Assembly (NCBI RefSeq): GCF_022846255.1
Contig: NZ_AP025682.1
Direction: 5' to 3' (one strand)
From: Escherichia coli
GTDB lineage: Bacteria > Pseudomonadota > Gammaproteobacteria > Enterobacterales > Enterobacteriaceae
Length of the DNA stretch: 64,000 nucleotides
Shown: piece after piece, positions 60,123 to 63,119 of the stretch
Numbering within the stretch: the stretch's first letter is position 1
How the letters are laid out: every line of letters begins with the position of its first letter
Notes under the pieces: generated by a model
Told to the model about the DNA's origin: nothing
What the model saw: only the letters and a program-made list of their open reading frames with translations
Databases searched by the model: none
Program-made: the position numbers and the translations under genes

Positions 60123-61499
60123 TTAGCTGCACATTTCCAGCACCGAATCGAAAATCTCGGCCCCGGCGGAAATGACTTTCAGATTGGCTTCATAAATTTG
60201 TTGATAGGTGATCAGGTTCACCGCCTCTTCGTCCATGCTGACGCCGCTGACGCTACTCTGCTGGTTTTGCGCTTCGGAATAGACATTGGACGCGGCATCG
60301 ACTTCCGTCTGGTTTTGCTGACTGTAAATGCCGATATTGCTGATGATTGACGAGCACGCCTGCCCGACCGTCACACTGCCGAGGTTGGCTATCTCCAGCG
60401 GTTCGGTGGAGATATTGATCAGCGCCTGCAGGTTGTCGCTGTTGCCGCTTTCGTCCGGTGAACTGGAAAACGCCAGCTCATCGGCAGTGATATCCGGGTT
60501 AACGGTCAGTGGGCCGTCGGCATTGCTGGCATCGTAAATAAACAGTGGCTCGCCGGGGTTACCGTTGAGATCGTAGCCCTGCGCCAGCTGGTTGTTGACC
60601 GCATCGGCGAACTGCGACGCCATGCTGTTGATGGTGTCGGTCAGCGGCGTCAGCACATCGTTTTGATAATCAAACAGTGCGCCTAATGAACCGCCAGTGT
60701 CGGTGGTCATCGTCGAGATGGTTCCGGCGAAGGTCAGCGTCATACTTGCTGTACCATCGGCGTTGGTTTCCAGCGCGATGGTCGAGCTTTGCTGCCCGCT
60801 CACCAGCGGCTGACCGTTTTTCAGGGTGACGTTGTAGTTGCCCTGGTCGTCAACATTGACCTGCACGTCCATCATTCCGCTCAGTTCTTCCACCATCTGA
60901 TCGCGGGCGTCGTACAGCGCGGAGGCGTTATCGCCGTTGGCTTCGGCCTGAGCGATTTGCTGGTTATAGCTGGCGATGCCGCTGGTCAGCGTATTGATTT
61001 GCGATACCATCGCCTGCTGCTGACTGATGATTTCCGTGCTTTGCGAGTCGATGTAATCCAGCGTGTTGTCGATGCGCAAGGACAGCGCCCCGGCTTCGCT
61101 GATCACCTGCTCGCGCAGGGCGGAATCATCGGGGCTGGTGGTCGCTTCGTTAAGGGCAGCGAAAAAGTTATCGAAGCCGCCGCTCAGACTGCTGTTATCG
61201 TCGCTCAGTACCGCTTCCAGTTGTGTGAGATACCCTTGTTGGGTGCTGTAATAGCCGTAATCGCTGGCGGCATACCATACCTGATTAACCTGATACTGGT
61301 TGGAGACGCGGCGAATACTGTCGACCTGCACGCCGTTACCGGCGCTGTTCGGCGAACCACCGCTGGCACCGATGGTGCTGATCTCCGCCACCTGGCGGGT
61401 GTAGCCCGTGGTCATGGCGTTAGCGGTGTTTTGCGCCGTGACGTTCAGCTCCACCTGCGCGGTTGATGCGCCGCTGTAGCCGATGTTAATCATGTCCAT
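60123..61499 (-). CDS. lfgK: Hook-associated protein 1, FlgK-like
   Basis: 458 aa, MDMINIGYSGASTAQVELNVTAQNTANAMTTGYTRQ... Confidence 0.85.
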   Translation of the reverse strand: MDMINIGYSGASTAQVELNVTAQNTANAMTTGYTRQVAEISTIGASGGSPNSAGNGVQVDSIRRVSNQYQVNQVWYAASDYGYYSTQQGYLTQLEAVLSDDNSSLSGGFDNFFAALNEATTSPDDSALREQVISEAGALSLRIDNTLDYIDSQSTEIISQQQAMVSQINTLTSGIASYNQQIAQAEANGDNASALYDARDQMVEELSGMMDVQVNVDDQGNYNVTLKNGQPLVSGQQSSTIALETNADGTASMTLTFAGTISTMTTDTGGSLGALFDYQNDVLTPLTDTINSMASQFADAVNNQLAQGYDLNGNPGEPLFIYDASNADGPLTVNPDITADELAFSSSPDESGNSDNLQALINISTEPLEIANLGSVTVGQACSSIISNIGIYSQQNQTEVDAASNVYSEAQNQQSSVSGVSMDEEAVNLITYQQIYEANLKVISAGAEIFDSVLEMCS

Positions 61500-61582
61500 G
61501 TTGGGTCCTTACCGGTAAATCGTGCCGGTTAAAAGCGGCGTGAAGTTGGGGATTCTTAAGTGGATAATGGTGCGCGCTGATG

Positions 61583-61690
61583 CCCTCACCCCGGCCCTCT
61601 CCCACAGGGAGAGGGCGAAAACCTGCGCCATATTCACCTCCGCGCTCAATCGGTCCCCTCGCCCCTTTGGGGAGAGGGTTAGGGTGAGGG
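61583..61690. repeat. Composite GC-rich inverted-repeat element in the lfgJ-lfgK spacer
   Basis: CCCTCACCCCGGCCCTCTCCC (61583-61603) versus inverted GGGAGAGGGTTAGGGTGAGGG (61670-61690), plus local perfect hairpin GCCCTCTCCC-ACA-GGGAGAGGGC (61594-61616). Confidence 0.6.
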
Positions 61691-61704
61691 GCAAAGCGCG
61701 CCCC

Positions 61705-62004
61705 TCATTTCCCCTTCGGCGACAACTGCTTCACAATCATCGCCGCAATCCCAATCCCGTGCTGCTGCGCCAGGGTGTTACACAACTCATCGTCATAAAA
61801 CCCCTGCATCATGCGCACCGAATCGCTGTTAAATGGGTTATCTTTCGAATCGAACAACTCGTTGGTTTTACGCATCTCTTTCAGCATGTTGCGTAAAAAA
61901 ATCGCCTCAAACTGTTCCGCGGCCTGCCTGATATCATTGGCCTGAACCTTCGGCCCCATTAACGCATCGCTGCCGTCAATCCCGCCGCTGCCGTTGATTT
62001 TCAT
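61705..62004 (-). CDS. lfgJ: FlgJ-like rod-binding protein (N-terminal domain only, no muramidase)
   Basis: 99 aa, ...AAEQFEAIFLRNMLKEMRK... Confidence 0.75.
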   Translation of the reverse strand: MKINGSGGIDGSDALMGPKVQANDIRQAAEQFEAIFLRNMLKEMRKTNELFDSKDNPFNSDSVRMMQGFYDDELCNTLAQQHGIGIAAMIVKQLSPKGK

Positions 62005-63119
62005 CAGATCACCTCCAGGTCGGCATCCAGCGCGCCCGCCTCATGCAGCGCCTGCAAAATCGACATAATGTCATCCGGCGTCGCGCCTAAACTGTTCAAC
62101 GCATTAACCAACGTTTTCAGGCTGCTCGACTCCGGCAAACTCACCACGCCCGGACGGGCATGATTCACCGCGATATTGCTCTGTGGCGTTACTGCCGTAC
62201 GCCCGCCCGCAAAGGCATTCGGTTGGCTGACGTTGCTGGTTTCGTTAATTGAGACAGTCAGGCTGCCATGCGACACCGCCGCCGCGTGCAGCGCGATGCC
62301 ATCGCCCATCACCACCGTACCGGTACGCGAGTTAAACACCACGCGGGCGCGGATTTTCTCCGCCTGCACCTGCACATCATCCAGTTGCGACATAAACGCC
62401 ACCCGCGCGCCGGGGCTGGTGGGCGCACGCACAGTGACGTTGGTGGAACTCTGCGCCGTGGCAATGCCGCCAAACGAGGCGTTGATCGCCGCCGCAATGT
62501 TGTTGGCGTCTTTAAACGACGGGCGTTTCAGGTTGAGCGTGATGGTGTCGCCCATCTGAAAATCGCTGGGGATCTCGCGCTCCACCGTCGCGCCGTTGGG
62601 AATTAACCCGGCGGTTGGCGTATTAACCGTTACGCTCGAACCGCTGGCCCCGGTGGCATTCATCCCGCCCACCACCACGCTGCCCTGCGCCAGCGCATAA
62701 ACTTCGCCATCCGCGCCGTGCAACTGGGTCAGCAACAAAGTGCCGCCACGAATACTTTTGGCATCGCCAATCGACGAAACGGTGACATCAATGGTCTGCC
62801 CGCGCGAGTACATCGGCGGCAGCGTGGCGCTCACCGCCACCGCGGCGACGTTTTTCACCTTCGGGTCGATTTTATTCGGCAGTTGCACGCCAAACTGGCG
62901 CAGCATATTGGTGATGGTCTGGTTGGTGAATTTGACCTGGTTTTTATCGCCCGTGCCGTCGAGGCCGACCACCAGGCTGTAGCCGACCAGTTGGTTTTCA
63001 CGCACGCCCTGTACGTTGACCAGCGATTCCAGCGATTGCGCCAGCGCCACGCCAGGTAGCGCCAGGCTCACGGTGATTACTGCGGCCTTTATCCAGTTTT
63101 GCATTGCACTCTCCGGCAT
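62004..63119 (-). CDS. lfgI: Flagellar P-ring protein, FlgI-like
   Basis: 371 aa with signal peptide; start overlaps lfgH stop. Confidence 0.9.

Follow-up and report, generated by a model that had tools for sequence, protein, structure and literature searches.

A palindromic repeat of Escherichia coli has been described several times under different names. It was first named BoxC (Bergler 1992), then PIT (Hoyne & Maher 2000, 2002), and then TMECO (PMC4666352). The TMECO consensus is CCCTCNCCC-N3-6-GGGNGAGGG-N3-GGGNGAGGG (Holder et al. 2015, PMC4666352). BoxC pairs always consist of one type A and one type B unit in inverted arrangement, and MG1655 contains five of them (Holder et al., PMC4666352). 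The same study reported that TMECO sites have no link to gene class or gene distance, that their surroundings show markedly raised sequence variability, and that the repeat is not associated with transposons, phages or plasmids. Circular dichroism and NMR revealed an intrastrand purine-motif triplex in types A mm and B in vitro, and in vivo DMS footprinting did not support a stable triplex (Holder et al., PMC4666352). According to the summary of Hoyne & Maher (2002) in PMC4666352, PIT elements have no promoter or terminator activity, and they block DNA polymerase in vitro and leave RNA polymerase unaffected in vivo. The motifs HPG1 and HPG2 were proposed to form a G-quadruplex-hairpin-duplex switch (Kaplan et al. 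2016, PMC5100583).

The DNA analyzed here (the window; 64,000 nucleotides) contains part of an E. coli Flag-2 (lateral flagella) cluster, which lies on the minus strand, and the end of the window falls within lfgH. Neighboring genes overlap or almost abut in lfgH/I/J and in lfgK/L, whereas the ORF coordinates leave exactly the 205 bp between lfgJ and lfgK that an earlier note on this DNA had pointed out. The features of this region are as follows.

60123-61499, minus strand: lfgK, from ORF coordinates
61500-61704, no strand: lfgJ-lfgK intergenic spacer, 205 bp, from ORF coordinates and sequence
61500-61561, minus strand: lfgK leader with the ribosome-binding site AAGGA at 61507-61511, from the comparison of nine alleles
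61509-61694, minus strand: spurious 61-aa ORF with a TTG start, a read-through translation of the repeat
61532-61558, minus strand: putative sigma-28-type lfgK promoter, TAAGAATC-N11-GCCGCTTT, from cross-genus conservation
61570-61703, no strand: composite BoxC pair unit, ~134 bp, with ends GTGCGCGC (61570-61577) and GCGCGCCC (61696-61703)
61583-61615, minus strand: BoxC/TMECO type B (the HPG2 G-tract motif), CCCTCTCCC-TGT-GGGAGAGGG-CCG-GGGTGAGGG, matching the TMECO consensus
61616-61655, no strand: 40-nt linker between the units (GAAAACCTGCGCC...CGCGCTCAATCGGTC), conserved in copies aligned from four loci
61656-61690, plus strand: BoxC/TMECO type A with one stem mismatch ("A mm"; HPG1), CCCTCGCCC-CTTTG-GGGAGAGGG-TTA-GGGTGAGGG, matching the consensus
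61705-61707, minus strand: lfgJ stop codon (UGA), immediately after which the long RNA stem starts
61705-62004, minus strand: lfgJ, from ORF coordinates

The 61-aa ORF was dismissed in the earlier note as a mere translation of the element, and RefSeq indeed leaves it unannotated in near-identical genomes. Its TTG start is the one point that speaks for a real small protein gene, a reading to which we give practically no credence: the ORF is composed of repeat sequence, RefSeq has no gene there in genomes with the same sequence, and the frame is broken in the empty, inverted and REP alleles described below. It is to be dropped from the annotation. At the other border of the spacer, the C-terminus of LfgJ (61705-61716) reads ...SPKGK in the window and ...SPKHK in most other alleles, owing to a CAT to GGG change adjoining the element. 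Through this change, a short inverted repeat that spans the stop codon, TGAGGGGC / GCCCCTCA (61685-61692 / 61700-61707), becomes longer.

The greater part of the spacer is occupied by an imperfect palindrome of ~134 bp at 61570-61703. A repeat finder returned inverted arms of 35 nt (61569-61603 / 61670-61704; 77% complementary, 66 nt between them), and it recovered both structures described in the earlier note, namely the inverted copies at 61583-61603 and 61670-61690, some 66 bp apart, and the perfect local hairpin GCCCTCTCCC-ACA-GGGAGAGGGC (61594-61603 / 61607-61616). The right-hand unit has a hairpin of its own with one mismatch, CCCCTCGCCCC-TTT-GGGGAGAGGGG, which is absent from that note. 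The pattern GGGAGAGGGYN(1-4)GGGTGAGGG (GGGAGAGGG-N-GGGTGAGGG) has two matches in the 64 kb, both of them here, with 0.00 expected from 100 shuffles. The TMECO consensus likewise has two exact matches in the window, at 61583-61615 on the minus strand and at 61656-61690 on the plus strand (0.00 expected). Together with base 61582, the type B unit is letter-identical to TMECO no. 1 and no. 4 of MG1655, which have a CCG loop, and the type A mm unit with base 61691 is letter-identical to no. 7, 11 and 15, which have a TTA loop (PMC4666352 Table 1). The HPG1 21-mer GGGAGAGGGTTAGGGTGAGGG is found exactly at 61670-61690 (plus strand) and the HPG2 21-mer GGGAGAGGGCCGGGGTGAGGG exactly at 61583-61603 (minus strand). 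The five A+B pairs of MG1655 could be re-derived, and the window pair, B(-) followed by A(+), obeys the same pairing rule. MG1655 also contains pairs of another geometry, (+,-), in which only 16-27 nt separate the two units. A type A unit at NC_000913.3 1351204-1351239 adjoins fabI (= envM), the locus at which BoxC was first described (Bergler 1992).

Searches for other identities were negative. The REP consensus (GCCGGATGCGGCG...CCGGCCTAC; GCCGGATGCGGCG...TTATCCGGCCTAC) is absent from the spacer of the window. An Rfam scan of 61000-62200 at E <= 10 returned no family; the best match reached 21 bits where the gathering score is 94, all E values were >= 0.5, and the noise matches were mainly to eukaryotic miRNA, snoRNA and IRES models. 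Judged by its sequence, the element is a pair of inverted BoxC/PIT/TMECO units, already known down to the identical sequence and the A+B pairing. The description in the earlier note, an inserted member of a GC-rich palindromic repeat family of enterobacteria other than REP, was thus apt and can now be given a name. BoxC has been known for three decades, and the lfgJ-lfgK copy is an already known kind of element. It shares with the K-12 copies the identical units, the intergenic location, the presence in multiple copies, the inverted A+B pair and the variable surroundings; there is no essential difference, except that the window copy belongs to a cluster, Flag-2, that is missing from K-12. HPG1/HPG2 (PMC5100583) are the same object under another name, and the regulatory role proposed for them is unsupported by the distribution of alleles reported here.

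The number of copies agrees with this identity. When 61560-61710 was compared by blastn with 5426 complete E. coli genomes, matches were found in 5398, at a median of 16 places per genome, which makes the element in the spacer one copy of a dispersed repeat. Uniqueness, which the earlier note had named, together with a lack of effect on transcript levels, as refuting its reading, is not the case. Nine of the 5426 genomes have a 100% match at the lfgJ-lfgK locus itself. The copy in the window is intergenic. Candidate cases of plasmid carriage were rejected, as the matches are mostly mislabeled chromosomes or chromosomal fragments, for example a Flag-2 fragment. A scan of species-representative genomes with GGGAGAGGGYYRGGGTGAGGG agrees with the wide taxonomic spread already reported by Holder et al. 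(PMC4666352): among the matches listed, the motif is multi-copy in MAGs labeled Verrucomicrobia, Hyphomicrobiales, Deltaproteobacteria, Polaromonas, Contendobacter, Afipia and Archangium. In 97 of the 135 matches listed the motif follows a C-rich partner, the arrangement seen in E. coli, and the flanks are lineage-specific. In the MAG "bacterium GL140_5", the BoxC-like core is embedded in a longer, near-invariant repeat, GTAACAGTGATAAAAAGAACGTTGTTGCCCCCTCCCTCGCCCTCT-core-TTGCGGGCTCCGCCCGCGTTAG, present on many contigs; the flanks around the core in other phyla differ from these.

Nine E. coli alleles of the lfgJ-lfgK spacer were compared. The 62 nt adjoining lfgK (61500-61561) and the lfgJ stop codon are common to all nine with a few substitutions, and the variable inserts start in each case beyond ...CTTAAG. 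The spacer of PCN033 is 76 bp long and lacks any repeat, and MFDS1022581 carries the BoxC pair unit in the opposite orientation. REP/BIME alleles, which have two to six REPs and span 175-420 bp, are the common state of the spacer; the REP consensus is present at this slot in alleles L005-L010. The REP-type allele of O26:H11 str. 11368 additionally contains an insert of ~70 bp (...GGCATGCGGACTGCAGGCAGAGAAAACTGGCCGATTTTCTCTGCACTGGAGGG...) with no relation to either REP or BoxC.

Approximately 1222 complete genomes carry the lfgJ-lfgK junction and 33 of these have the BoxC pair at it, in a census that uses BoxC counts only, since piece-joining and REP sites elsewhere confound the BLAST counts of empty and REP junctions. 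The orientation of the window is found in 27 of the 33 alleles (95-99.3% identity over 271 nt), the inverted orientation in four, and a 63-bp internal duplication in the remaining two (VCSW5, VCSW7). Some 97% of Flag-2 loci are without the BoxC pair at this junction, and the comparison among strains that the earlier note had proposed thus reveals a polymorphism in presence, the spacer being otherwise empty or filled by REP. Since the gap of other strains is empty or REP-filled, the element is to be regarded as a strain polymorphism and not as a flagellar control device. This spectrum of empty alleles, two orientations, internal duplication and REP arrays fits exactly the variability reported around TMECO sites. 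In VCSW5/VCSW7 part of the linker is duplicated (+63 bp) and a degenerate half-unit is present, a sign of local instability within the element.

Inversion in situ was considered as the source of the opposite-orientation allele and rejected. The arms, distinguishable by their TTA and CCG loops, are exchanged and the junctions lie a few nt apart, which argues for separate insertions instead of a flip in place. In a search for target-site duplications, direct repeats at the junctions of the window element, of the opposite-orientation allele and of two copies at other loci (L002, L137) did not exceed 1-2 nt, the junctions being ambiguous owing to divergence of the flanks as well.

The region between the insertion site and lfgK may hold a promoter. 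The lfgJ-lfgK spacers of Citrobacter rodentium, another Citrobacter, Scandinavium, Dryocola and Pseudescherichia were fetched. With the exception of that of Scandinavium, which its gene call shortens, each of them (L140, L141, L143, L144) has in common with E. coli the motif TAAGAAnn-N11-GCCGCTnT at an unchanged spacing, and this motif resembles the sigma-28 layout TAAAGTTT-N11-GCCGATAA. Only 7-16 nt, with no repeat, separate it from the lfgJ stop codon in the other genera. This makes the short state the ancestral one, with BoxC and REP inserted into it just upstream of the putative -35 box. In a scan of the window, the lfgK site scored 9/16 against the canonical FliA consensus, under the cut-off; a loose TAAG-N15-GCCG search of the window showed no enrichment (5 found, 1.8 expected); and neither the region upstream of the presumed lafA nor other late genes in the window gave a clear match. 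As the FliA, loose-motif and lafA scans gave no support, the case for the promoter is one of conservation across genera. The flgK gene, both in the primary flagellar system and in the lateral flagella of Vibrio parahaemolyticus, offers an analogy for a late promoter of its own. Taken with this analogy, the conserved motif suggests that lfgK probably has its own late, sigma-28 (LafS-type) promoter. Because the slot lies directly upstream of the conserved putative promoter motif, the lfgJ-lfgK site is probably a boundary between transcription units and not the interior of an operon. The placement of the element inside a tightly packed operon, as given in the earlier note, therefore stands as to the packing of the genes, which overlap or nearly abut, but probably not as to the operon.

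With its end only ~11 nt from the putative -35 box, on the upstream side, the BoxC element could alter the context of the promoter. It is conceivable that a triplex or G-quadruplex acts as a non-B DNA switch tuning the adjacent lfgK promoter, and both structures do form in vitro in these sequence types (PMC4666352, PMC5100583). Apart from this proximity and the in vitro structures, the evidence is unfavorable, and we consider such a switch very improbable: the in vivo footprinting and the lack of a link to gene class or gene distance (PMC4666352) speak against it, and the element is present in a minority of alleles and in either orientation. 

The composite unit is not confined to lfgJ-lfgK. 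Both units and the 40-nt linker align with the window in three copies (L002, L011, L137): the opposite-orientation allele of MFDS1022581, a copy in Flag-2 variable region 1 (VR1) of R32_14_1F (L002 2501-2633), and a copy in the phnK-phnL spacer of FORC_069 (L137 1491-1666). Similarity among the aligned copies ends at GTGCGCGC on one side and at GCGCGCAC on the other; the right end reads GCGCGCCC in the window as opposed to GCGCGCAC in the other copies. The (-,+) pair, 40-nt linker and GTGCGCGC ends included, thus recurs as one unit at several loci, and the BoxC descriptions consulted hold no explicit statement to this effect. The VR1 copy (L002 2501-2633; L146 2489-2620) lies, in some strains, between genes for a lysine-N-methylase and a glycosyltransferase, and one VR1 stretch was deposited as a 70-kb "plasmid" with flgA/M/N-type genes. 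The phnK-phnL spacer contains the pair unit in 545 complete E. coli genomes, about a tenth, and in MG1655 (L139 4897-5006) it contains a REP pair instead. The phnK-phnL spacer is a second slot with BoxC/REP alternation. In the convergent phnP-yjdP spacer, strain 23CRST031 (L145 1201-1317) has a pair-like BoxC variant with 84.7% identity to the window unit, and MG1655 has a single type A unit.

These properties invite comparison with two other classes of repeat. Like REP/BIME (PU) elements, BoxC is palindromic, intergenic and multi-copy, its consequences for RNA are likely to be similar, and REP/BIME elements occupy the same slot in most Flag-2 loci and in phnK-phnL. Unlike them, BoxC is of unrelated sequence, and its strands are purine/pyrimidine-asymmetric with a third G-tract. 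To our knowledge, no RAYT-type transposase is known for BoxC. Like MITEs (ERIC/IRU, Correia), the BoxC unit has terminal inverted repeats, a length of ~130 bp, a presence/absence pattern and both orientations. The terminal repeats of the composite unit are GTGCGCGC / GCGCGC(A/C)C; the whole unit is found at lfgJ-lfgK, Flag-2 VR1 and phnK-phnL, with a variant at phnP-yjdP; and an empty site can be identified in the 76-bp PCN033 allele and in the short slots of other genera. We know of no parent IS whose ends match those of the BoxC unit. We put forward tentatively, as a somewhat doubtful proposal, that the B+A BoxC heterodimer, whose ~131-134 bp are bordered by GTGCGCGC, may move as a discrete MITE-like unit, inserting in either orientation and competing with REP/BIME for very short slots directly behind stop codons.

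The earlier note had suggested that the element acts as an internal attenuator or mRNA-processing site, and the folding of the transcript bears on both roles. In the mRNA sense, the 205-nt spacer RNA folds with -94.8 kcal/mol (z = -4.3) and the 142-nt element RNA with -86.2 kcal/mol (z = -6.3), a value that none of 200 shuffles equaled. The predicted stem is an imperfect duplex of ~55 bp that begins right after the lfgJ UGA. An attenuator or terminator would partly halt lfgB-J transcription at this hairpin and uncouple hook-junction from rod/ring genes; the stability of the hairpin and its position directly after lfgJ are as such an arrangement would have them, and Kaplan et al. (PMC5100583) speculated on a terminator role for motif copies within operons. 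However, the stem is followed by CAUUAUCCACUUAAG and not by a U-tract, and a search for intrinsic terminators (GC-rich hairpin plus U-run) found 0 sites in 61300-61900 on both strands; the hairpin would therefore not be expected to terminate transcription. The PIT elements tested lacked terminator activity as well, in the citation of Hoyne & Maher (2002) given in PMC4666352. A promoter scan of the spacer region found no sigma-70 promoter. Moreover, the element is missing from nearly all Flag-2 loci, and in the 545 genomes noted above the same unit lies between phnK and phnL, upstream of genes required for C-P lyase. Strong polarity is disfavored since the same unit sits within the phn operon in so many E. 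coli genomes. An attenuator is thus improbable.

A role in mRNA processing or stability has somewhat more in its favor and is nevertheless unlikely. The stem would be cut by RNase III or would block 3' exonucleases, and it may slow the termination of lfgJ translation. The ~55-bp imperfect duplex starting right after the UGA is suited to such a role, a long dsRNA stem could be a substrate of RNase III, and the slot is elsewhere filled by REP/BIME, for which roles of this kind are reportedly established. An effect of this kind would also be compatible, as a side effect, with a neutral repeat. Against a dedicated role, empty alleles exist in E. coli and short spacers free of inserts are the rule in the other genera sampled, which indicates that a processing element is not needed here. 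With 33 of ~1222 Flag-2 genomes carrying the element, a phn operon copy in 545, and neither a U-tract terminator nor a sigma-70 promoter, the regulatory part of the earlier note is not borne out.

It seems likely instead that an inverted BoxC pair has been inserted into an insertion-tolerant slot as a selfish or neutral dispersed repeat. The B+A pair, a palindromic unit of ~134 bp, would have entered a ~15-nt slot bordered by the lfgJ stop codon and the putative lfgK -35 box, and would persist because this slot is the one harmless place for an insertion in a compact gene cluster. A lfgB-J transcript reading into the element would fold into the ~55-bp imperfect hairpin, whose effects may at most resemble those of REP/BIME: it could hold up 3' exonucleases or modestly slow the ribosome as it completes lfgJ. 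As single-stranded DNA, each unit could form a hairpin, a purine-motif triplex or a G-quadruplex; ViennaRNA, which predicts the hairpin part only, gives -11.7 kcal/mol for the type B unit. All three forms have been observed in vitro for these exact sequence types (PMC4666352, PMC5100583), and non-B forms may be the reason for the unusual variability at such sites. The element may, on the other hand, have some local influence on the level of lfgJ or lfgK, and the sharing of one slot by three different palindromic inserts could reflect selection for a structured element and not mere tolerance.

As a catalogued repeat and a minority allele, the element deserves annotation neither as a gene nor as a Flag-2 regulator. 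On the function and spread of BoxC, a question 30 years old, the lfgJ-lfgK copy offers no better handle than the K-12 copies. The clean alternation of empty, BoxC and REP states at lfgJ-lfgK and phnK-phnL does provide natural material for testing effects on transcripts, and the lfgJ-lfgK slot offers both BoxC orientations. If the MITE-like reading is true, it implies a mobilizing enzyme or a structure-directed route of recombination, and it might help to explain why a near-identical 36-nt core is found in distant phyla, each with flanks of its own. Finally, the five-genus motif is a likely late promoter for lfgK and bears on the order in which the Flag-2 genes are expressed; if the putative promoter is real, lfgKL would form a separate transcription unit.
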